A DNA stretch of 61,799 nt from Patescibacteria group bacterium. Its GTDB lineage: Bacteria; Patescibacteriota; Microgenomatia; UBA1400; MFAQ01. Each line of letters starts with the position of its first letter. The stretch's first letter is position 1. Position numbers and translations under genes: made by a program. Of this stretch, positions 5,919 through 61,799 are shown piece after piece. The stretch lies in assembly GCA_943355005.1 (NCBI GenBank), contig CALRDV010000007.1, positions 1 to 61,799 on the forward strand, written 5' to 3'. The notes under the pieces are model-generated. The model was not told where the DNA came from, made no database searches, and saw only the letters and a list, made by a program, of their open reading frames with translations.

Positions 5919-6441
5919 GTACCAACAAATCTTTGAACTCCACACAGACATCCTCAAAGCCCTGTCTCACCCCAAGAGGCTAGAAATCATCCACCTTCTC
6001 CGAGATCAATCACTTTCGGTTCGTCAGATTCAGGATATGCTTGGCCTGCCTCAAGCCAATCTTAGTCAGCACCTTCAGATTCTCAGAGAGAACCAGGTAG
6101 TGATCACTTCCAAGAAAGGCAAACAAATCTTCTACAAAGTATCAAACCCCAAACTTCTGAAAGCCTGTGATCTCATCCGGGAAGTCCTTTTGGATAGATA
6201 CGAAAATTCGAATATGAAAGATGATCTTGGCAAAGACCTGTCAGACCTCCTTCCTGTCGGCATAGACCCTATTTGTGGCATGAAATTAACTCCGGAAACT
6301 GCAGCCTACGCCTTCGAGTTCCAGAATACCACTCACTACTTCTGCGCCTCAGGTTGTCTCGAAAAATACAAATCCTCTCGTCATTGCGAGGAGCAAGGCG
6401 ACGTGGCAATCCAGGAGCAATCCTTGTCATGCCGGACCTGA
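5917..6441 (+). CDS. ArsR/SmtB metalloregulator fused to a YHS domain
   Basis: KALSHPKRLEI...SQHL HTH; DPICGM...HYFCASGC YHS motif; the C-terminal tail RHCEEQGDVAIQ is repeat-derived. Confidence 0.9.
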   Translation: MYQQIFELHTDILKALSHPKRLEIIHLLRDQSLSVRQIQDMLGLPQANLSQHLQILRENQVVITSKKGKQIFYKVSNPKLLKACDLIREVLLDRYENSNMKDDLGKDLSDLLPVGIDPICGMKLTPETAAYAFEFQNTTHYFCASGCLEKYKSSRHCEEQGDVAIQEQSLSCRT

Positions 6442-7108: not shown

Positions 7109-9352
7109 ATGAAAAACACTTCAGTCACCCTTCCCGTAATCGGCATGGACTGCGCCTCATGTTCAAATATTGTTAACCGTGCCATCAAAAAAACCCCTGG
7201 CGTCACCCAATCCCAAGTAAATCTCGCAACCGAAAAAGCAGAATTTACATACGATCCCTCAATTGTTTCACTCGAACAAATTAATGAGAATGTCAAAAAA
7301 TTTGGATACTCTTTAAATATTGAAGCTAATGCAGATTCAGATTCTAAGCCAACGGACAAAATCACTTTACTGAAGAATCAAGTCGAAGTTCTTTTTCCCC
7401 TCGCCCTTCTTTTTTTCTTCCTGATGATTTACGACGCTTTAAGTCAATATGTTACATCGCTACCACCTTTTCCCTTTCCCATGTCGGTTTTTAACATCAT
7501 CGGTCTAGTTTTGGCTTCCATCACCCTTTTTATCTTTGGTCAGGAATTTTTAAATGCCATTCCTCGCTTTATCCGAACTAGGGTAGCAAACATGGATACC
7601 TTAATTGGTATCGGCTCTCTCACAGCTTATCTGTACTCTTTATTTATTGTTGTCTTCCCATTTGTCTCATCTAGACTTAATCTTCCTGAAACCACCTACT
7701 TCGACGTCGTTATCGTCGTAATTGGTTTTATTAAGTTCGGTAAATATTTAGAGGCCAACTCCAAACAGAAGACCGGCGAAGCTATCAAGAAACTCTTAAA
7801 CCTTTCTGCCAAAGTTGCGCTAGTCGAGAGAAAAGGCAAAGAAATTGAGATCCCCGTTTCGGAAGTAGTTGTTGGAGACATTATTATCGTGAAGCCCGGT
7901 GCCAAAATCCCTGTCGACGGCAAAATCATTGAAGGCAACACTTCCATTGATGAATCTATGATTACGGGCGAACCTATTCCTGTCGACAAAACCATTGGTG
8001 AGCTAGTTACCAGTGGCACTATAAATAAACAAGGCTACATCAAGTTCCGAGCCGAAAAAGTTGGTGCTGATACCTTACTTTCTCAAATCATCAAGATGGT
8101 TGAAACGGCTCAAGGTTCCAAAGCTCCCATTGAGAAGATGGCTGATACAGTCTCCGCCTATTTTGTCCCGACCGTTCTCATTCTTTCAATCCTTTCATTT
8201 ATTATCTGGTTTGCTCTAGGCAATCTCTCACTCGCCATTTCTTCTTTCGTAGGAATTTTAGTTATTGCTTGTCCTTGTGCTTTAGGGCTAGCCACTCCTA
8301 CCGCCATCATTGTCGGCGTCGGCAAAGGCGCCGAGAATGGGATCTTGGTCAAGGACGCCACTGTCTTAGAAAAACTACACGCCATCAACACCGTCGTCTT
8401 CGACAAAACCGGCACCATCACCATGGGCAAACCCCAAGTCTCAGAAGTAATTTCCAAATCCGATCTAAACGAAACCGAAATTATTTCCATCCTCGAATCT
8501 TTAGAAAAACGCTCCAGCCACCCCCTCGCCCAAGCCATCGTCGACTACTATTCGTCATTGCGAGGAGCGGAGCGACGCGGCAATCCAGGCAATGTGCTTC
8601 AACACTTCAAAGAAATCCCCGGTAAAGGTGTCTCGGGTCAAATCAAATCCAAAAAGTATTTAGCCGGCAATCTCACTTTACTCAAAGAATCAAAAATTGA
8701 CTTTGATTCCAAAGAAATTCAGGAATTTACCAAAAAGGGCATGACTCCCGTATTTCTTTTCTCAGAGAAAAAACTCCTTGGTATTGTCGCCATTTCCGAC
8801 ACCATTAAGCCTGAATCCAAACAAGCAATTTCAGATTTACACAGCATGGGAATAAAAACCGTCATGCTTACGGGTGACGATCAGAACGCCGCCGCTTTTA
8901 TCGCCGAGCAGGCCGGAATTGATCGAATCTATGCCCAAGTCTTACCGACCGAGAAAGCTAACATTATTGAAAAATTAAAAGCCGAAGGCAATAAGGTCGT
9001 CATGGTTGGAGATGGTATAAACGATTCCCCCGCCTTGGCCACCGCCGATGTTGGCATTGCCATGAGTACAGGAACCGATGTCGCCATCGAATCTGCAGGC
9101 ATTACATTACTTCATGGAGATATCGCCAAAGTCGCCAAAGCCATCAAGCTTAGCAAAGCCACTATGCGAACCATCAAACAAAATCTTTTCTGGGCTTTCT
9201 TCTACAATGTTATCGGTATCCCTGTCGCCGCCGGCCTTCTTTACCCCCTCTTCGGCATCATTCTAAATCCCGCCATTGCCGGCGCCGCCATGGCCTTCTC
9301 CAGTGTCTCCGTTGTAACCAATTCCCTCAGACTAAAAACATTCAAGTTATAA
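7109..9352 (+). CDS. copA: Cu(I)-translocating P1B-type ATPase
   Basis: GMDCASC HMA domain, TGEP, CPC, DKTGT, HP, GDGIND, YN and MAFSS motifs. Confidence 0.95.
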   Translation: MKNTSVTLPVIGMDCASCSNIVNRAIKKTPGVTQSQVNLATEKAEFTYDPSIVSLEQINENVKKFGYSLNIEANADSDSKPTDKITLLKNQVEVLFPLALLFFFLMIYDALSQYVTSLPPFPFPMSVFNIIGLVLASITLFIFGQEFLNAIPRFIRTRVANMDTLIGIGSLTAYLYSLFIVVFPFVSSRLNLPETTYFDVVIVVIGFIKFGKYLEANSKQKTGEAIKKLLNLSAKVALVERKGKEIEIPVSEVVVGDIIIVKPGAKIPVDGKIIEGNTSIDESMITGEPIPVDKTIGELVTSGTINKQGYIKFRAEKVGADTLLSQIIKMVETAQGSKAPIEKMADTVSAYFVPTVLILSILSFIIWFALGNLSLAISSFVGILVIACPCALGLATPTAIIVGVGKGAENGILVKDATVLEKLHAINTVVFDKTGTITMGKPQVSEVISKSDLNETEIISILESLEKRSSHPLAQAIVDYYSSLRGAERRGNPGNVLQHFKEIPGKGVSGQIKSKKYLAGNLTLLKESKIDFDSKEIQEFTKKGMTPVFLFSEKKLLGIVAISDTIKPESKQAISDLHSMGIKTVMLTGDDQNAAAFIAEQAGIDRIYAQVLPTEKANIIEKLKAEGNKVVMVGDGINDSPALATADVGIAMSTGTDVAIESAGITLLHGDIAKVAKAIKLSKATMRTIKQNLFWAFFYNVIGIPVAAGLLYPLFGIILNPAIAGAAMAFSSVSVVTNSLRLKTFKL
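8553..8589 (+). repeat. CGTC-type REP inserted in frame in copA
   Basis: cgtcattgcgaggagcggagcgacgcggcaatccagg encodes SLRGAERRGNPG. Confidence 0.85.
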
Positions 9353-11184: not shown

Positions 11185-11200
11185 AATTAAAATAAACAAC

Positions 11201-11476
11201 ATGTTCAACTTCTTCAAGCCAAAAAACAAAGTCTCCCTTGTCAAAGGGAGAAACGGCAAAGCCGAGAGGGATTTAACATCCCTCACCCTCCACCTATCCG
11301 GCCTCCACTGCACTTCCTGTGCAGTGAACATCGACCTTGCTCTAGAGGATCTCAATGGCGTTAAGTCCACCACCAACTACGCCAAGTCAGAAACCAAAAT
11401 CGAATACGACCCATCCAAAACTACTCTAGATCAAATCCACTTCACCATCCGCGACCTGGGTTATTCCATACTCTAG
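11201..11476 (+). CDS. Heavy-metal-associated (CopZ-like) chaperone with an in-frame palindromic insert
   Basis: GLHCTSC HMA motif and C-terminal LGY; SLVKGRNGKAERD insert at 11232-11274. Confidence 0.85.
   Translation: MFNFFKPKNKVSLVKGRNGKAERDLTSLTLHLSGLHCTSCAVNIDLALEDLNGVKSTTNYAKSETKIEYDPSKTTLDQIHFTIRDLGYSIL
11232..11274 (+). repeat. TCTCCC-TTGTCAAA-GGGAGA palindromic repeat (copies at 43531 and 43696)
   Basis: Three near-identical ~43 bp copies in the window. Confidence 0.85.
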
Positions 11477-33175: not shown

Positions 33176-33196
33176 ATATTAAATCTATCCACTAAC

Positions 33197-33417
33197 AAAC
33201 CAACCTTTCGGTTGGTTACTTGGTTGCCCGGCGAGGCTCTGAAATAATTTTCCTCAAAATATTCCTTGCGAAGATTTTGAGATTAGAAAATTAATGAAGT
33301 TTGCCGGAGTCAGTTTCGTAACGAACCTGACGAGGCGGGCACCGCTAACGAAGTAGATCATCGCATTTTAAGCACCAAAAAACCAACCTTTCGGTTGGTT
33401 ACTTGGTTGCCCGGCGA
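33197..33417. mobile_element. Structured non-coding element flanked by 38 bp direct repeats of the 5S rRNA 3' end plus terminator
   Basis: aaaccaacctttcggttggttacttggttgcccggcga at 33197..33234 and 33380..33417; the core 33238..33339 is homologous to 61077..61183. Confidence 0.65.
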
Positions 33418-33527
33418 TGATCTACTTTCGCAATCAGTTGCCCAATCACTATCATCGACGCTGACCTGTTTCACTTCTCTGTTCGAAATGGGAAGAGGTG
33501 GTTCCAAGTCGCACAGATCACCGGACA
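33408..33527 (-). rRNA. rrf: 5S rRNA
   Basis: Reverse complement has the conserved CCCATTTCGAAC and AGTAG motifs; terminal helix tgtccgg/ccgggca. Confidence 0.9.
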
Positions 33528-33624
33528 GGAAAAAATTCCGAGATCAACTTGTGTTGAGCCTGCCGAAACACTTTCCTATCTTGCGATCTGTTATAAACAC
33601 CTTCTCAAATCTAGAATGACACCT

Positions 33625-33650
33625 TGTCATTCCCGACCTGATCGGGAATC
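33625..33650. repeat. TGTC-type REP in the 23S-5S spacer
   Basis: tgtcattcccgacctgatcgggaatc. Confidence 0.75.
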
Positions 33651-33729
33651 TATATAAATTAATACCATTTTAAAGAGTAATATTACTCCCTGAATAGTGA
33701 ATAGATTTGCAAAAAGATAGCACGTAAAT

Positions 33730-36982
<3,253 letters not shown>

Positions 36983-37135
36983 CATATATTCTTTTGCTTC
37001 AAATTTGAATTTGAATTCGTGCGATCTACTTGCATAATCTATTCACTTTTCAAGGAACAACATTCGAAGCTCATTGAGCTCGTGGTTGATTCTAAGGGTA
37101 GATACCTTTGGAGTCAATCACCAGATCAATTTGTA

Positions 37136-39987: not shown

Positions 39988-40062
39988 CGTCATTGCGAAT
40001 CACGGTACTCCGAGCTGTGGTAATCTCACCCCACATTGTCATTACGGGCTTGACCCGGAATC
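39988..40062. repeat. Two tandem CGTC/TGTC-type REPs
   Basis: cgtcattgcga...gtaatct; tgtcattacgggcttgacccggaatc. Confidence 0.75.
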
Positions 40063-40697
40063 TATATAAATTTCTCCATCTCCCCAAAATCCTCAATCAC
40101 AAAAGTCGCTCCCAAATTCAACTGTTTTTCCTTGGCATAATATTCTTCATATCTTTTAGGGAAGTATAGTCCCGTCTTAGTCCCCGCTCTCCTCCCAGCC
40201 ATAATATCATTTTCATTATCTCCCACCATAATTGCTTCTTCCGGTCTCCCTTTCATCATTTCCAGCGCTTTAAATAGTGCTTCAGGATCCGGTTTTATAA
40301 ACTCCACATCTTCTTTACCCAGAAAAACATCCACCAAATCTCTCAAGCCATTACTCCGCAGAGCCGTTTTTACCCATCTTTTTCTGGAAGCTGTCACAAT
40401 TCCAATTTTTCCACCATTCATTTTTATATCCTTCAACATCTCATATGCCCCCGGATTAAGTTTTACTTCGTTTAATTTACCCATAATTTCCTCTTCCAAG
40501 TCGGCAAAAAACTTCCCAGAATTAGTGATACCTAATTTTGCAGGACCATCCCAGTCTCCAATCACATCTTCAGCAAACTGTTTTGTCGTCATTTCAACAC
40601 CATGCTCCGCAAATATTTTTTTAAATCCGTCAAACCATATAGGCAGTGTATCAGCCAAGCTTCCATCCCAATCAAACAAAAAATATTTGTAAGTCAT
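40062..40697 (-). CDS. HAD hydrolase, subfamily IA (PpaX/phosphoglycolate phosphatase-like)
   Basis: FDWDGSLADT, KPDPE, MVGDNENDI. Confidence 0.9.
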   Translation of the reverse strand: MTYKYFLFDWDGSLADTLPIWFDGFKKIFAEHGVEMTTKQFAEDVIGDWDGPAKLGITNSGKFFADLEEEIMGKLNEVKLNPGAYEMLKDIKMNGGKIGIVTASRKRWVKTALRSNGLRDLVDVFLGKEDVEFIKPDPEALFKALEMMKGRPEEAIMVGDNENDIMAGRRAGTKTGLYFPKRYEEYYAKEKQLNLGATFVIEDFGEMEKFI

Positions 40698-43235: not shown

Positions 43236-43910
43236 ATGCAAATAATATCTCTCAAAGTTGGCGAAATGGGCACCAATTGTTACCTAGCCGTCGACGAAGC
43301 TACTCAAAAATGTTTAATTATCGACCCAGGCGACGAAGGTGATTTTATTACTACTTCAATATTAGAAAACAAGCTTTCCTCGGTAGGTATTCTTCTCACC
43401 CACGGTCATTACGATCACTGTCTTGCCGCCTTAGAATTGAAGCTGAACTTCAATATTCCAATATATCTCCACCAAAAAGACCTTTTTCTTTACAAAAAGG
43501 CGCACATCTCCGCTTCATATTGGAGTACTATCTCCCTTGTCAAAGGGAGAAGCGGCGTAGCCGAGAGGGATTTAAACTTTCATCTTCCCCCCATCGACAT
43601 TTTTCTGACAGACAAACAAAACATTCCTTTTGGTGACTCCTCTCTTATGGTTCTTCACACTCCCGGGCACACCCCCGGCTCCTGCTGTTTTTATATCTCC
43701 CCTGTCAAGGGGAGAAGCGGCGAAGCCGAGAGGGATTCTAGTCATTTATTCACCGGAGACACCCTATTTGCTACCGGCTCAGGCAAAGCCGATCGATCCT
43801 ACTCCTCACTTCCCGCCCTCAGAAAATCCATCTCAGGCATCAAAAAAGACTTCCCGGACGCCCTCATCTACCCCGGCCACGAAGATTTCGGAGTCTTCAT
43901 CAGGCGCTAG
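43236..43910 (+). CDS. MBL-fold metallo-hydrolase (glyoxalase II-like) with two in-frame palindromic inserts
   Basis: THGHYDH, TPGHTPG, FTGDTLF, YPGH. Confidence 0.92.
   Translation: MQIISLKVGEMGTNCYLAVDEATQKCLIIDPGDEGDFITTSILENKLSSVGILLTHGHYDHCLAALELKLNFNIPIYLHQKDLFLYKKAHISASYWSTISLVKGRSGVAERDLNFHLPPIDIFLTDKQNIPFGDSSLMVLHTPGHTPGSCCFYISPVKGRSGEAERDSSHLFTGDTLFATGSGKADRSYSSLPALRKSISGIKKDFPDALIYPGHEDFGVFIRR
43531..43573 (+). repeat. In-frame palindromic repeat, copy 2
   Basis: Encodes SLVKGRSGVAERD. Confidence 0.85.
43696..43737 (+). repeat. In-frame palindromic repeat, copy 3
   Basis: Encodes SPVKGRSGEAERD; compensatory T-A to C-G change in the stem. Confidence 0.85.
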
Positions 43911-56468: not shown

Positions 56469-58178
56469 ATGATTGAAACTGGGGATTATTATCATTTATT
56501 TATCGATGATATACCCAGATTTTCCCTTGAGAATTTCCTAGAAAACGACATTGATGCCAAAAATCTTATCGATTTCTTAGATCATATCAAAGCCATAGTC
56601 AGAACTCATTGGGCTGACTACATGGTTTCTGTCTTCAATGATCTTCCTGATTCTCCAAAAAAAACAAAACTCTTCAATATATTCCAAAGCGAGACAAGTC
56701 TTAGAACAATCCTAGACAAAGAAAAATTTCGAGAGTTGGAAATGCTCAGACTTGTCGATGAAGGTGAATTCTGGAGAGAAATTGTTACGGCAATTTCCGA
56801 AAGAGAAATTGCCACCATCGGTCTAGCTAAGCATTTTCTGGACCATCTTACTAAAGAACAGCAGGAAAACTTATCTCTCTCTAAGCAAGAAATTGATTTA
56901 TTTCTCGACCTATCATTCTCCATCCAGCATTTTATCGATCAGGCCTACATACACCAGCTCGCCTTGGCGGATGAACCTGGGGGCAAACAAGTAGGGACAC
57001 TTCCCTTAGAGTTTGGCTATGAATATTTATACGACGATAAAATTCCCTACTCTGAAGTATATTCAGACGAGTTCACTTGTCTCACGGAAACTTTAAATGA
57101 TTTTTCCAATCGAATAGAACAGGAAGTAGAGGATGGATTGCTATCACCGGACTATCTCTCACTTGCTCACTATCTCACTACCCTTTCCAAAAGCTACGGT
57201 TCCAAAGAGACTAATATAGAAAAAATTAATCAGATATGGGAGGATGTGGATAGAGAATACATCAGTCTGGCTCAACAAGGATGCCCCATTATTCTGACAC
57301 CGTGGGGATTTTTGACCGACGGTAATCACATTGGCATAGAATTGATGGTGACGCTCAATCTAGGTTCCTCTTCAAAGTGGCATAAGGATAGTGAGATATA
57401 TCGCGGTTTAGTCAGGAATTTTATGAGAAATTATGAGCCGGATTTTGAGCCCGTTCCATTTATCCATCAATATGTCTTTGTCAGGAACGGTCTCAATATC
57501 CCTTGGTCCGGCACAGCCTGTGCCAGCAATCGTTACGTTGTTTTTTATGATAACGAAAATGACAATTTCTCCGCCAATCTATACCATTCTTACTATGACG
57601 AGTTCATCGATGGAAATACTTCGGAGAACAGATTTGCGTACGTCAGAGGTCTAAATACAGTTGCTCACGAAACAGGACACTTGGGACGCATGCTAAACCA
57701 AGACCTATATCAGAAAATGGGTAATGGAGTAAATATTAACAAGCTGGACGAAGCCAAAGCAGATTCTATGGCTACTTTACTTTTTTCGAAAGATTTAATT
57801 CAAGGTAATACCGATGTCACTCCCTCCGAATTTATCGAGCAGTATATTGTCGACTACATAGATGAGATTAGAGGAGCCAGAGGTCATGAGACCGAAGATC
57901 TTGGTATTGTCTGGTATGACTTCAGTGCCAAACTCATGTTACTGACACTCTTTGAATCAAACTCCATTATCTGGAGCAAAGATAAAATCAAAATAATCGA
58001 CGGTTACTCAGGCATGGTGGCCATCGCAGGGGTAGGCAAACAAATTTTCAATTTCTATGGAGATGAACACTTCGATAGTCAAGCTGTAAGTTTATATATT
58101 CAAAATATCGAGGAAAGAGTTTTCCGCAATGCAGATATCCAAAAATTTCTCGCCAAAGTCACCATTGTCCATCGCTAA
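56469..58178 (+). CDS. Zincin metallopeptidase, M49/dipeptidyl-peptidase III-like
   Basis: AHETGH followed by LDEAKAD. Confidence 0.65.
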   Translation: MIETGDYYHLFIDDIPRFSLENFLENDIDAKNLIDFLDHIKAIVRTHWADYMVSVFNDLPDSPKKTKLFNIFQSETSLRTILDKEKFRELEMLRLVDEGEFWREIVTAISEREIATIGLAKHFLDHLTKEQQENLSLSKQEIDLFLDLSFSIQHFIDQAYIHQLALADEPGGKQVGTLPLEFGYEYLYDDKIPYSEVYSDEFTCLTETLNDFSNRIEQEVEDGLLSPDYLSLAHYLTTLSKSYGSKETNIEKINQIWEDVDREYISLAQQGCPIILTPWGFLTDGNHIGIELMVTLNLGSSSKWHKDSEIYRGLVRNFMRNYEPDFEPVPFIHQYVFVRNGLNIPWSGTACASNRYVVFYDNENDNFSANLYHSYYDEFIDGNTSENRFAYVRGLNTVAHETGHLGRMLNQDLYQKMGNGVNINKLDEAKADSMATLLFSKDLIQGNTDVTPSEFIEQYIVDYIDEIRGARGHETEDLGIVWYDFSAKLMLLTLFESNSIIWSKDKIKIIDGYSGMVAIAGVGKQIFNFYGDEHFDSQAVSLYIQNIEERVFRNADIQKFLAKVTIVHR

Positions 58179-59323
58179 ACAGCGAGCATCCAATGATTGT
58201 ACAGTTCCCCTGCCGACCCCTTATCGTTCCATCTTTTTTCAAAGTCGTCCTTCTTGTATCGGACTATTCCCTTACCGTCACCTGGCACTTCCTCGGACTC
58301 AATTGTCGGGTCGAGCACCCATACAAATATTTCGTCTATTTTATACACCACTGAGTAGTGACCACTATCCAAATTATTCATTTCCTCCTCGGTTCCCCAA
58401 GCTTGATAGCAAACTAGGCAAACTTTATTTTTTCTTAATCTCATTTCCAAATCCTCTAAATCAGCTCCATTCGTCTCGATATAAGAAATACCTTCTTCGT
58501 TTAATAATTTTTTTATATTTTGGGATTTTGTTCCATCTTCAGGATTCACATCCATCCGTACATATAGATTATTCTTAGCGACATCTTCTTTGCCTATCAT
58601 TGTCAGCAAATTATTTACGGCAGCTCCTCCACAATCATAATCAAATTTTTGAAAAACCGGCACAATACCAATATCTTCTCTTCCGCACATCGTTCCAACT
58701 TCACTCTCTTTTTTTTGAAATATCAAATCGAGAGCCAAATCATATGGCGTCGGTTCCCCAGTCAATACATCTTTAAAGTTATGTGTCGACCTTCCAATTT
58801 CATGAAGTTTTACCTTCATCGATTTAGATTTTTTTACCTCTTCCTTTATTTCATCTATGCTTCCGTATGTGTCACCACTTCCCTGAATTATCGTTAAATC
58901 GGAATATACATTTCTCAAATCAATTTCACCCACCACAAAGCCAAGTATTACCAGGTCATACTTTTTTTGTTCTATTCCACTTAGTTCGCTAAGATATTCC
59001 ACGGCCACGATTCCACCTGAAGATTTTCCAATCAAACGGATTTTTTGATACTCAATCGCATTACAACTATGAAGTACTTGCACCAAGGTCTCTATGTCTT
59101 CTCGTCTGGATTTTTCCGGACTCCAAGCGAGCTCCGTATTATAGAAAGGATAATCGAACATCGCCACACTTCGATTCATTCTTTTAGCTGTATCAAAAGT
59201 CTTCTTAAGAGAGGCAGAGATATCGATACCCTTTCCACTACCCGGCAAAATTATCTCTAAAATCTCTCGATTTCCACTGTCAAAACTTACAATCTTTGGC
59301 AACATTGTAATTAAATATACCAC
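58175..59323 (-). CDS. Alpha/beta hydrolase fused to a C39-type cysteine peptidase
   Basis: GKSSG, IIQGSGDTYG, THNF; FQKFDYDCG, GHYSVV, LDP. Confidence 0.8.
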   Translation of the reverse strand: MVYLITMLPKIVSFDSGNREILEIILPGSGKGIDISASLKKTFDTAKRMNRSVAMFDYPFYNTELAWSPEKSRREDIETLVQVLHSCNAIEYQKIRLIGKSSGGIVAVEYLSELSGIEQKKYDLVILGFVVGEIDLRNVYSDLTIIQGSGDTYGSIDEIKEEVKKSKSMKVKLHEIGRSTHNFKDVLTGEPTPYDLALDLIFQKKESEVGTMCGREDIGIVPVFQKFDYDCGGAAVNNLLTMIGKEDVAKNNLYVRMDVNPEDGTKSQNIKKLLNEEGISYIETNGADLEDLEMRLRKNKVCLVCYQAWGTEEEMNNLDSGHYSVVYKIDEIFVWVLDPTIESEEVPGDGKGIVRYKKDDFEKRWNDKGSAGELYNHWMLAV

Positions 59324-59328
59324 CCAAC

Positions 59329-59850
59329 CTACACAGACAACATCCAGTGATCATAGATTTTCCCTTTGTGATCCATATCTTTCCACCTTCCCTCAAAAGT
59401 CGTTTTTTTAATTTTTCTGATTCCCTTGCCGTATCTAGTTTTCGCCTGTTTCACGTTCGGATCCGCTAACCACAAAAAATCTTTTTCAACCCCAAAGACC
59501 ACGGAATAATGACCACACTCCAGCCTGTCATAGTATTTTTGCGATCCCCAAGCTTGATAGACCACAAGGCACAATTTATGGTTTTTGACCTTTTTCTCCA
59601 AATCAGACAGTGACGCCCCGTGCTTTTCTTTGAAATTTAAATCCATATCGTCGAAGAAATCCTTGATTCTCTCCGGATGGGTCCCGTGGCGCCTGGTAGT
59701 GCCCAATTTCCTCTTTAGAGTCTCTTTTCTGGGCGTATTACCCAAAGTCCGTAGAATTGTCATCACAGAAGCCAGGCCACATTCATAGCCATTTTGCTGA
59801 CGGGTCGGCTTTACAGGCACAAATAGTATTTTATCTCTCTTTTTGACCAC
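59329..59850 (-). CDS. Stand-alone C39-type cysteine peptidase
   Basis: QQNGYECG, GHYSVV, ADP, FEGRW. Confidence 0.85.
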   Translation of the reverse strand: MVKKRDKILFVPVKPTRQQNGYECGLASVMTILRTLGNTPRKETLKRKLGTTRRHGTHPERIKDFFDDMDLNFKEKHGASLSDLEKKVKNHKLCLVVYQAWGSQKYYDRLECGHYSVVFGVEKDFLWLADPNVKQAKTRYGKGIRKIKKTTFEGRWKDMDHKGKIYDHWMLSV

Positions 59851-59989: not shown

Positions 59990-60259
59990 ATGTCAGACCT
60001 TTTTGAGCCTAAGTTTGAAGTCAATGGTATCTACGCCAGAGATGAATTTGTCTTTCGTATGGAAGTAATCCTTACCACCATCCCCGATATCGATCCCTTC
60101 TACAAGAGCATTCAGGGCTTTATTGACTGGGCCAAAGGACACCCGGATAACTATGTCTTTGGTTTTGACACCGCCCAAAGTGGCATTATTTATCCCTTCG
60201 CCAGAATCGATGTTATTTTTCCCATCGTAGACCCAGAACAATCTCAAGACAGCCCCTAA
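59990..60259 (+). CDS. Small hypothetical protein
   Basis: TTGAGT-16-TATAAT promoter, SD aggagg, terminator 60246..60272. Confidence 0.6.
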   Translation: MSDLFEPKFEVNGIYARDEFVFRMEVILTTIPDIDPFYKSIQGFIDWAKGHPDNYVFGFDTAQSGIIYPFARIDVIFPIVDPEQSQDSP

Positions 60260-60277
60260 AGGCTGTCTTTTTGTTTT

Positions 60278-60982
60278 TCAATATTGATTATTTTTTAATA
60301 ACCATTCTTTAAAAGGACTTACGTCGGGAAAAAGACCAATCGGCAACCCCTCGAACTCCTCGATACTAGCTTCTTTTTTTGCAAAAATAAGTAAATCATT
60401 GTGATTACCGGTCCTGGCATCCAAGATCAGTTTAAAATTTGTAAGCAGATTCTTTAATCTTTCAACACTTCGTGGGAATGTTTTAATACCAAATCTAAAC
60501 AAATCAGAGGCCTGGGAGAAGATGGGAAAACTTGGATTATCTATAGTCATCACCAAAAGACCATTATCCGACACTCTTAAAGGAAAATTTACATTCATTT
60601 CTCGAAGTTGACCGTCGGACATAAAATCAGCAGTATAATCACAAATCAACAAATCTACCAAACCTAAGCCATCGGGAAATTGCTCTAGCTTTGCTTGTCG
60701 TACAAGATACTTTTCTTCATCACATTCCTTTAGTGCTTCTTTATTCTGATCCAAAATTACGACAGCCAAAGGGTTTTTAAAGAGATTCCTACACAAAGAC
60801 TCAAAATGTTCCGGTCTTGTGACTCTAGGATGAAGCCCGCCAAGGACTACCGTTAATTCCTCAGTCTCATCTTTACCGTCCATTACAAAGCCCTCAAGCT
60901 GTTCCAAAACATACCTGTAATATGGAACTTGTGCCGAAAGAGGCACCACCTCCTTTTCCTCATAATATCTCTTCCATTCCAT
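60278..60982 (-). CDS. Class I SAM-methyltransferase-like protein (degenerate motif I)
   Basis: VVLGG, ILDQN.EAL, VDLLICDY, NGLLVM. Confidence 0.55.
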   Translation of the reverse strand: MEWKRYYEEKEVVPLSAQVPYYRYVLEQLEGFVMDGKDETEELTVVLGGLHPRVTRPEHFESLCRNLFKNPLAVVILDQNKEALKECDEEKYLVRQAKLEQFPDGLGLVDLLICDYTADFMSDGQLREMNVNFPLRVSDNGLLVMTIDNPSFPIFSQASDLFRFGIKTFPRSVERLKNLLTNFKLILDARTGNHNDLLIFAKKEASIEEFEGLPIGLFPDVSPFKEWLLKNNQY

Positions 60983-61060
60983 GCCAACATTGTCCCATAC
61001 TCCACCTTCAATTTTACCCGACTTAATCTTTCTAACAAAAACCCCTAATTGGAGGTTTAA

Positions 61061-61270
61061 TTGTGGGCGCTCTTGGTCTGAGAAATTGTTCTCTCAAAAT
61101 ATCCCTCGCGGAGATTTTGAGGTTGAGAACAAGTTTGAAGATAGCCGGAGCCAAACCCGTAACGGAATTTGGCGAGGCCGGGGTGAAGGTAAAATCGAAG
61201 ATTTTAATCTGAACTCAACTAAAAAGACCCCAAGAGGAATCTTAATTAATTATTTTGTGGGCGCTCTTGG
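61061..61270. mobile_element. Structured non-coding element flanked by 16 bp direct repeats of the tRNA-Ile 3' end
   Basis: ttgtgggcgctcttgg at 61061..61076 and 61255..61270; the core 61077..61183 is homologous to 33238..33339. Confidence 0.65.
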
Positions 61271-61331
61271 GGTCGAACCAAGCACCTCGGTCTTATCAGG
61301 ACCGCGCTCTAACCAGATGAGCTAAGCGCCC
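61258..61331 (-). tRNA. tRNA-Ile (GAT)
   Basis: GGGCGCT...CTGATAA...GGTTCGACCCC...AGCGCCCA; CCA not encoded. Confidence 0.95.
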
Positions 61332-61414
61332 AAAACTACCCGTTTATTTTAACACAAGCAATCCTAAATAAGCACAAAATTCCCGCCTACCGGCGGGAAA
61401 ATTTTCATACAAAA

Positions 61415-61549
61415 CTAAATCAGAATCGCCACCACGACCATTGCCAAGCCTAGCATCCCCATCAACTTAGCCAAAAACCATTGTTTCTGAACCGCATTTA
61501 CCAAAGATACGATTCCCAACAATCCTGCCAAAAACAAAGCAAAAGCCAT
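61415..61549 (-). CDS. Small two-TM protein (44 aa), not in the ORF track
   Basis: MAFALFLAGLLGIVSLVNAVQKQWFLAKLMGMLGLAMVVVAILI; SD aggag; hairpin at 61381..61398 downstream. Confidence 0.45.
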   Translation of the reverse strand: MAFALFLAGLLGIVSLVNAVQKQWFLAKLMGMLGLAMVVVAILI

Positions 61550-61660
61550 AATCCCATCTCCTTCTCCGACTTTTAATCGGAACAAAAAATATCAGCGAAC
61601 AACTACCTATAGGATACATCATTTTTATCTAAAAGTCAAATCTAGCCACAAAATGAACCT

Positions 61661-61799
61661 CCACGGACAGACTCCGCAGTAGCTACGCATTGTCCGTGGT
61701 TTCTGGTTTGTATTTCATGAGAATCCCAAGCTTGTCTGCCGAGGAGTATCCAGTTTCCCTTGATACTTGATGTACTTCGTAATGGTACTTTCGTTAAGC
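61661..61799 (-). mobile_element. Right end of an IS200/IS605-family element
   Basis: Subterminal hairpin ccacggaca...tgtccgtgg (61661..61699) just downstream of the tnpA stop. Confidence 0.75.
61715..61799 (-). CDS. tnpA: IS200-family Y1 transposase, C-terminal fragment (cut by the window edge)
   Basis: ...LNESTITKYIKYQGKLD...: the catalytic Y-I-x-x-Q helix of TnpA. Confidence 0.75.
   Translation of the reverse strand, partial: LNESTITKYIKYQGKLDTPRQTSLGFS

Follow-up and report, generated by a model that had tools for sequence, protein, structure and literature searches.

The window analyzed here is a stretch of 61,799 nt that constitutes an entire contig (C7) of a 1.25-Mb Patescibacteria genome, which is assembled in 17 contigs and is 99.3% complete. 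Near its right end, a tRNA-Ile(GAT) gene identified by tRNA search occupies positions 61257-61331 of the minus strand and is followed by its intrinsic terminator (61224-61243, minus strand; terminator scan and reading). On the minus strand, this terminator contains ctcttgggg, which is the complement of the tRNA's own T-stem and acceptor bases. Direct reading reveals the 16-nt string ttgtgggcgctcttgg at 61061-61076 and again at 61255-61270. The inner repeat comprises the last bases of the tRNA gene plus 2 nt, and the outer repeat is a copy of the tRNA-Ile 3' end that appears as its reverse complement on the plus strand. Thus, the 16-bp duplication of the tRNA 3' end with a period of 194, which a preliminary description of this locus had reported, is indeed present. 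The degenerate terminator copies mentioned in the same description fared less well: one clear terminator exists (61243-61224, minus strand), but beyond the outer repeat there is only a weaker T-tailed hairpin.

Three plus-strand hairpins lie between the two repeats. The first, H1 (61077-61140), is defined by alignment, covariation, and the minimum-energy fold; it carries the tctga base (61077-61081), an outer stem pairing 61086-61093 with 61125-61132, a terminator-like inner hairpin (61094-61120), and the sequence tgaag (61136-61140). The core module hairpin (61144-61181) was delimited by alignment A2 and scores 53.1 bits with R1, a covariance model of the module hairpin built from that alignment. 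Its pyrimidine-pyrimidine internal loop is 1x2 in this copy. The third hairpin, SL2 (61183-61214), stands on a U-GA/GA-A tandem-GA base and was recognized by covariation and the minimum-energy fold. When the plus strand from 61061 to 61240 is folded, the minimum-energy structure consists of exactly H1, the module, and SL2, all enclosed within a 7-bp domain-closing helix in which the tail copy (61070-61076) pairs with the terminator region (61230-61236). Reads of one DNA run covering 60000-61799 assembled into two identical contigs, one of which ends at 61270, and in that run only the filled form was seen, with no alternative (empty) form or joints.

A sister copy trails the 5S rRNA gene (33409-33525, minus strand; Rfam search). 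Its outer repeat is 51 nt long (33190-33240, plus strand), includes the 5S 3' end and terminator as a reverse complement, and is 92% alike to its inner partner at 33373-33423 (family D10). Hairpin H1 of this copy spans 33238-33299 on the plus strand, with an outer stem pairing 33246-33252 with 33286-33292 and an inner hairpin at 33253-33281, and the module follows at 33303-33339 (plus strand; model R1, 61.5 bits). SL2 is absent from the 5S copy, where 15 nt of the 5S 3' region occur in sense orientation (33350-33364, plus strand) and are complementary to 33414-33427 inside the 5S gene. In both window copies, the conserved core is antisense to its RNA gene.

Comparison with the 5S copy confirms that the stretch at tRNA-Ile is a second copy of a stable-RNA-associated element, as had been proposed. 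All four compensations listed in the preliminary description are present, namely ctt/aag to ctc/gag, aattttc/gaaaatt to ttgttctc/gagaacaa, gtcag/ctgac to gccaaa/tttggc, and ttcg/cgaa to ccg/cgg, and the six invariant blocks (tctga, ctcaaaatat, attttgag, tgaag, gccggag, and cgaggc) occur in both copies.

At gathering thresholds, Rfam 15 recognizes only tRNA, 5S, and LSU genes in the window. The 23S rRNA match (33732-36983, minus strand) covers 3252 nt against a model of 2925, and therefore holds about 330 nt of extra sequence (an insertion or intron). This contig lacks the 16S gene; a tRNA-Ala gene adjoins the 23S gene, and tRNA-Ile lies 24 kb off. Several other repeats share the window. An approximately 87-nt repeat (family D5) with a conserved hairpin-plus-tail segment, unrelated to the element, is present in three copies (43486-43572, 43651-43737, and 11187-11273). 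REP-like hairpin repeats of at least two families (D7 and D14) occur at 6378-6415, 8552-8589, 33620-33660, 40032-40072, and elsewhere. Positions 1-2700 hold long internal repeats (D1-D6, 129-189 nt, 74-100% alike) that probably represent repeated domains of one large gene. Two adjacent ORFs of 382 and 173 amino acids (58175-59850, minus strand) share a similar C-terminal domain and look like tandem paralogs.

A conserved fold in two arrangements

Members of the family are non-coding elements of about 110-190 nt whose conserved core comprises three helices on tandem G-A pairs: a first helix, the module hairpin, and SL2, which is located behind the module on its U-GA/GA-A base. The module is the most conserved part, at 37-38 nt in alignment A2. 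It rises from a 3-bp base through a bulged G and tandem G-A/A-G pairs, for which one subgroup has U-A/A-U, to a stem of 5-6 bp. A pyrimidine-pyrimidine mismatch separates this stem from a second one of 3-4 bp, which carries the invariant cg-taa-cg apex, and GG follows. One module in a relative (L100 11769-11863, G004:C2) has a 40-nt GC-rich hairpin inserted in its apex as a nested insertion.

The core appears in two forms that differ in the origin of the first helix. In the common, gene-sense form, it lies behind a tRNA or tmRNA gene in the same orientation as the gene, and the first helix forms when the T-loop and T-stem 3' strand of the gene, present as an inverted copy, pair with a direct tail copy located after SL2 and spanning the T-loop to the gene's 3' end. 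Equivalently, gene tail, terminator, and inverted copy form one long hairpin. In the form present in the window, the element has its own hairpin H1, composed of an outer stem and a terminator-like inner hairpin, and the core, antisense to the RNA gene, is bounded on one side by that gene's terminator and on the other by a direct copy of the 3' end of the gene. Both window copies belong to this subfamily with its own H1, antisense to the RNA gene, which is newly recognized here. We considered the antisense form as a circular permutation of the gene-sense form and dropped the idea for a simpler reading, namely that gene tail, terminator, and inverted copy replace H1 in the gene-sense form.

The preliminary description had taken the compensatory changes as an argument for selection on the fold, a proposal that predicts covariation in a larger alignment. 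We examined this with alignment A3, which holds 21 H1-type copies from nine genomes. With a 24-pair structure, 91.9% of positions are paired compared with 74.5% in shuffles, and 89 cells are changed on both sides compared with 23.8 in shuffles. None of 500 shuffles reached the values observed for the 21 copies, a figure that is not a probability because the copies are related. The case for a fold beyond chance is made instead by the slid controls, in which displacing the 3' partners by 1-3 columns leaves only 31-47% paired, and by the many distinct stem sequences. RNAalifold, run unprompted on A3, proposed 22 pairs, 18 of them with compensatory change. Every helix contributes to this signal: the inner hairpin of H1 has 12 pairs, of which 10 are changed on both sides; the module has nine, of which eight are; and SL2, on 12 copies, has 12 pairs, eight with compensatory change. 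Covariation in the larger alignment is therefore strong and the fold beats every control on the 21 copies, bearing out the original argument. The fold is under selection.

Neither wobble pairs nor folding energy was decisive in choosing the active strand, since wobbles are few and both strands fold well. The module stems are almost purely Watson-Crick, with no G-U and five A-C pairs among 276 stem cells of 23 distinct modules, and the inner H1 hairpin contains some G-U and some A-C. In silico, the two strands fold about equally (z-scores -2.5 to -3.3). Given this near-absence of G-U and the equal folding of both strands, the active strand may be either one, and it may act as RNA or as DNA.

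Permissive Rfam scans of both element regions (E up to 10), with RtT, hammerhead, twister, other ribozymes, and IS605-orfB RNAs among the Rfam models, returned nothing relevant, and the best other match over the element (E 0.75) scores 18 bits against a gathering score of 90. A hammerhead-like three-way junction (cuga ... gaa around SL2) was also considered and rejected: its core is one position short, extra bases lie between the helices, and no ribozyme model scores. Among the articles listed by a literature search on repeats or hairpins at Patescibacteria tRNA genes, none describes the element or contains the word Patescibacteria.

A fold of this kind brings to mind a functional small RNA gene of the tRNA-linked-repeat kind, which is the main rival to the interpretation that we favor below and which we judge to be unlikely. 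The antisense window form would then be transcribed from the plus strand, and the RNA would begin with 16 nt complementary to the 3' end of tRNA-Ile. Indeed, the conserved unpaired bases form purine-rich, RNA-like motifs (tandem GA and the taa apex), and the layout matches that of E. coli tRNA-linked repeats (TLRs), with a gene, a terminator, an element that terminates with 16-26 nt of the gene's 3' end, and a second terminator. The scarcity of G-U pairs in the stems weighs against an RNA, however, and a scan of the plus strand with the sigma-70 consensus alone found no sigma-70-like promoter ahead of either window copy.

Copies, sites, and turnover

Model R1 gives 27 matches at 26 loci in this genome, the 27th match being a duplicate of a locus because contig ends overlap. 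The association with RNA genes that had been described from the window holds across the genome, as 14 of the 26 loci lie within 70 nt of a tRNA or 5S 3' end and 19 lie within 811 nt. Eleven loci are located no more than 70 nt behind a tRNA in the gene's sense. Five lie 200-811 nt downstream, likewise in sense orientation, either as a second or third unit or behind a short cargo. Three are within 70 nt and antisense, behind 5S, tRNA-Ile, and tRNA-Arg-CCG. The gene-sense form also trails tmRNA in relatives. The remaining seven loci are away from RNA genes, with four inside REP-like repeats and three between protein genes. Element copies sit at the tip of one REP-like hairpin family at C1:38385, 141161, and 166683 and at C5:8500. 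In favor of a small RNA, copies between co-directional protein genes would be sense-transcribed (C1:26383, C4:38054, C1:38375, and C5:8490).

Among 61 related genomes, R1 matches were found in 22, including 21 of 36 genomes from the same family and none of 24 from other families. Copy number ranges from 1 to 27 within one genus and from 0 to 27 among close relatives, a spread that speaks against a functional small RNA gene. The tRNA-Ile site itself is rarely occupied. Only three of 28 related tRNA-Ile(GAT) loci have a downstream module match, and two of these are weak. Among 15 tRNA-Ile loci inspected, the same-genus sites at L036, L037, and L039-L041 are empty, and those at L038, L048, L049, and L063 hold other tail-copying inserts, one of them double. 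In genome G019, a gene-sense variant occupies the tRNA-Ile site ahead of the same downstream gene as in the present genome. One site therefore holds different variants, or none, in different genomes, which is a new observation. A second insert family of roughly 220 nt that copies the tRNA tail was noted behind tRNA-Ile of G004 and G012 (L038 1280-1500 and L049 1290-1500, minus strand); it is without the module and shares only the ggtcctgagg junction motif with the element.

Judging from sequence identity, variants track neither site nor genome. Identity to the tRNA-Ile copy is 80% for the tRNA-Arg copy of G004, 66% for the present genome's own tRNA-Arg copy, 62% for a G034 copy of tRNA-Ile type, and 60% for the 5S copy. 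The antisense form recurs at orthologous tRNA-Arg(CCG) sites in at least seven genomes of three genera and at orthologous 5S sites in three genomes of two genera, and on a short G034 contig it stands in tandem with tRNA-Ile-type tails. Another tandem array of the element is found at L067, and an H1 core is nested inside a gene-sense element at L078/L110. The spacer after a lon-like gene is filled in the present genome, G007, and G011, is empty in G006 and G009, and contains REP-like repeats in G003 and G005. When filled and empty forms of this locus are compared, only the 5' edge of the insertion is fixed, right after the stop codon, because downstream synteny breaks. These comparisons show that, between related genomes, copies are gained and lost, variants are exchanged, and elements nest or line up in tandem. 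Persistence at the orthologous tRNA-Arg(CCG) and 5S sites favors the small-RNA explanation, and for the mobile-repeat interpretation developed below it is a difficulty, as it could mean host function rather than selfish spread.

The lengths and starting points of the tail copies suggest another source. An integrase acting at tRNA genes could have left the element as a scar, or the element could be a miniature derivative that retains only attP, with the tail repeat corresponding to attL and attR. The direct repeats do start at classic positions, in that the gene-sense repeat begins at T-loop position 56/57 in most of 15 copies examined and the repeats at tRNA-Arg measure 32 to about 47 nt, reaching the anticodon loop. 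Moreover, a true integrase island leaves a displaced 3' half in the same way. This island, at tRNA-Asp of G001 (L085 3900-10150; G001:C1:663900-670150), is 5.8 kb long and encodes a 333-amino acid integrase beside the restored tRNA; its far end has a displaced 40-nt tRNA 3' half followed by two element copies. The tail copy of the element matches the displaced old tRNA half and not that of the island, however, which makes the element older than the island and independent of it. An integration scar is improbable on other grounds as well. Integrase arm sites would show no stem covariation, 5S genes, REP-like repeats, and gene spacers are occupied too, and the same two housekeeping-type tyrosine recombinases are shared by 37 of 37 genomes examined, with or without the element, extras being rare. 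No cognate integrase dedicated to the element was found, and the only integrase near a copy belongs to the unrelated island.

Replication polarity and candidate enzymes

Polarity was scored from GC skew over 10 kb on either side of each copy, using a threshold of 0.05 or 0.08 that was the analyst's choice; GC skew is only a proxy for replication direction. On several contigs the skew is strong and uniform (C2, -0.12 to -0.34; C7, -0.14 to -0.30; C3, +0.08 to +0.24). Genes for rRNA are expected on the leading strand, and those of C7 are on the positive-skew strand.

The purine-rich (module-sense) strand of H1-type copies lies on the negative-skew strand in 22 cases and on the positive-skew strand in none, with five ambiguous. 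After orthologous sites were collapsed, about 14 independent H1 loci all agreed (sign test, 1.2e-4), a result drawn in part from 20-kb pieces of relatives that were selected for holding a match and from related genomes that are not independent. The purine-rich strand of the H1 form is on the leading-strand template side, a polarity that is new here. It holds whatever the orientation of flanking genes, as H1 copies in this genome are sense with both neighbors in four cases, antisense in two, and between divergent genes in one. For a small RNA it is awkward that orientation in this genome and its relatives tracks GC skew rather than transcription. So is the finding that, of 10 H1 copies in this genome, at least 5 run antisense either to their RNA gene or to both flanking genes.

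Taken alone, the gene-sense form has no skew bias (28 negative, 28 positive, and 16 ambiguous). Its choice of tRNA genes is far from even, as it is found at 17 of 29 lagging-strand tRNAs compared with 12 of 79 leading-strand tRNAs (Fisher, 1.8e-5). Antisense copies occur only at leading-strand tRNA genes (7 of 79 versus 0 of 29 lagging). Together, these occupancies mean that the module tends toward one orientation with respect to replication, irrespective of the direction of the RNA gene. This tendency accounts for the antisense placement of the two window copies.

Such polarity may reflect biased insertion or biased survival. A different candidate is a host-serving DNA structure at places where replication meets heavy stable-RNA transcription, for example a topoisomerase or fork-protection site. 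Roles of this sort have been proposed for the hairpins or cruciforms of some REP/BIME repeats. Polarity that follows GC skew is compatible with such a site, as is the enrichment of the gene-sense form behind head-on (lagging-strand) tRNAs, where the fork arrives from the 3' side, and purely Watson-Crick stems are what one would expect if both DNA strands must fold. We nevertheless regard the idea as quite improbable, because the element is absent at the same genes in many close relatives and its asymmetric conserved loops argue for one active strand; we also know of no protein partner.

Replication-strand polarity does lend weight to the wider idea of a single-strand DNA process. According to the excerpted portion of PMC5027513, transposition through single strands is marked by an orientation tied to the replication fork, and replication-tied orientation is also reported for folded integron sites in an excerpt of PMC5371416. 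The specific agent first suggested, the TnpA of an IS200 located 400 bp away, finds no support. That IS200, which is present in several copies and unrelated to the element, interrupts the assembly at the window end (61650-61799) and accounts for one of three Y1 transposase matches in this genome. At its left and right ends it carries hairpins with GC-rich stems of 9 bp and long loops, and these resemble neither H1 nor the module nor SL2. Further IS200 copies are present at the ends of contigs C2, C12, and C13, and a 158-amino acid Y1 transposase is encoded on C13.

The more general possibility is a palindrome-associated IS200/IS605 miniature or REP-like partner of a Y1 (HUH) transposase that moves as single-stranded DNA. 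The element shares replication-strand polarity with such elements as excerpted in PMC5027513, four copies sit at the apex of REP-like hairpins, and the genome has a multi-copy IS200 along with two partial-Y1 proteins of 236-238 amino acids. The pattern of co-occurrence makes this explanation highly improbable. No Y1 (PF01797) match was found in six copy-rich genomes of 86-97% completeness (G012 with 15 copies, G034 with 18, G035 with 10, G019 with 9, G030 with 9, and G002 with 10), and conversely about 20 of the 61 genomes have Y1 genes and hold no element. Besides the dissimilar end hairpins, the purine-rich strand is on the leading-strand template and not the lagging-strand template. IS200/IS605 elements also insert without target duplication, and the copies studied here are flanked by 16-51-nt target-derived repeats. 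Many genomes of the order encode conserved proteins of approximately 215-260 amino acids that match only the second two-thirds of the Y1 domain, with one to several per genome; examples in this genome are G000:C10:26824-27057 and C3:126481-126711, and the group is possibly REP-associated.

Other enzyme classes were sought in this 99.3% complete genome, and neither reverse transcriptase (PF00078) nor TnpB (PF07282) gave a match.

Interpretation and comparison with known systems

On balance, and with a confidence only a little better than even, we read 61061-61256 as a non-autonomous mobile repeat of one Collierbacteria-like CPR family whose fold is read by a replication-coupled single-strand process. 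According to this proposal, the element would spread or survive via a replication-coupled step acting on folded single-stranded nucleic acid. What this step recognizes would be shape and not sequence, which is why the fold would be kept. Insertion would either produce or require the copied tail of the RNA gene. The mobilizing enzyme would be something other than IS200 TnpA, reverse transcriptase, TnpB, or a private integrase. Several points count against this reading besides persistence at orthologous sites. None of the candidate enzyme families searched fits, no mechanism accounts for the copying of each target's tail in inverted as well as direct orientation, and insertion polymorphism within the population was not seen in the one DNA run, in which only the filled form appeared.

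A bolder version can be put forward only tentatively, at a confidence well short of even. The family might represent a new kind of fork-coupled, gene-less mobile element that travels as a folded single strand using a host or unrecognized enzyme. Its insertion sites would be hairpin tips and the downstream side of strongly transcribed stable-RNA genes, and inverted and direct copies of the target's tail would supply part of its fold.

A clear fold, rapid turnover, and a strict replication-linked orientation together point to a single-strand, fork-coupled step from which the usual enzymes are excluded. If the polarity holds in complete genomes, the family would be a candidate for a new mobilization mechanism and could serve as a practical marker of replication direction and recent rearrangement in unculturable genomes. 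For annotation, the implication is that such stretches are not to be taken for broken tRNA genes, integration scars, or riboswitches.

Some known systems are quickly set apart from the element. A SINE-like target-primed retroelement would call for a reverse transcriptase and a guide RNA of the omega kind for a TnpB or IscB nuclease, and the genome has no match to the reverse transcriptase or TnpB families. Miniatures of IS200/IS605 elements and REP/RAYT systems resemble the element in being small and rich in hairpins, in keeping structure over sequence, and in having an orientation tied to replication, as described in excerpts of PMC5027513 and PMC3333891. In contrast to an IS200/IS605 miniature (PATE) or REP/RAYT, the element has no hairpins like those at the ends of the resident IS200 and does not co-occur with Y1, and it carries long target-derived repeats.

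Among folded DNAs, integron attC and CTX-phage attP are single-strand recombination sites. They share with the element the conservation of shape over sequence, bulged bases, and an inverted pair that folds into a target-mimicking duplex, and orientation relative to replication matters in both, as an excerpt of PMC5371416 reports for integron sites. The element differs in that no integron integrase was identified, its targets are the tails of stable-RNA genes, and its distal part is a conserved three-helix core and not a variable loop.

The attL/attR repeats of tyrosine-integrase elements in tRNA genes, said to have been surveyed by Williams in 2002, offer a different parallel, and integrase-less, cis-mobilizable derivatives are represented by the CIMEs of streptococcal ICEs. 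Both feature a direct repeat that covers the tRNA 3' part and starts in the T-loop or anticodon loop, and both show tandem accretion at one tRNA gene. Unlike att repeats, however, the element is without a cognate integrase, has an inverted tail copy and covarying hairpins, occurs also at 5S rRNA and at non-RNA sites, and is independent of the tRNA-Asp island in G001.

The closest known analogs are the tRNA-linked repeats of E. coli, including rtT/RttR of tyrT and rrA, rrB, and rrF. As described in excerpts of PMC8144298, TLRs comprise 22 units at ten loci. Each unit closes with 18-19 nt identical to the end of the tRNA or 5S gene that precedes it, and some are located between two terminators. 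The same excerpts report read-through transcription, processing, and binding of Hfq and CsrA for rrA, rrB, and rrF, which lie behind 5S rRNA, and otherwise give the function of TLRs as unknown. So far as that account extends, both families sit directly behind tRNA or 5S genes, between two terminators, end in the gene's 3' end, and occur singly or in tandem. The copying of the last 16-19 nt of the gene, by which TLRs are described, has its counterpart here in 16 nt at tRNA-Ile and in 51 nt, 92% alike, at 5S.

The two groups nevertheless do not match in sequence or structure, as the CPR core is a three-helix tandem-GA fold. The CPR family adds an inverted tail copy, an antisense subfamily with its own H1, and copies away from RNA genes. 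It also has a replication-strand polarity, a feature that the excerpts of PMC8144298 do not mention for TLRs. Ultra-small CPR bacteria thus harbor a family that is built like TLRs and is structurally unrelated to them.
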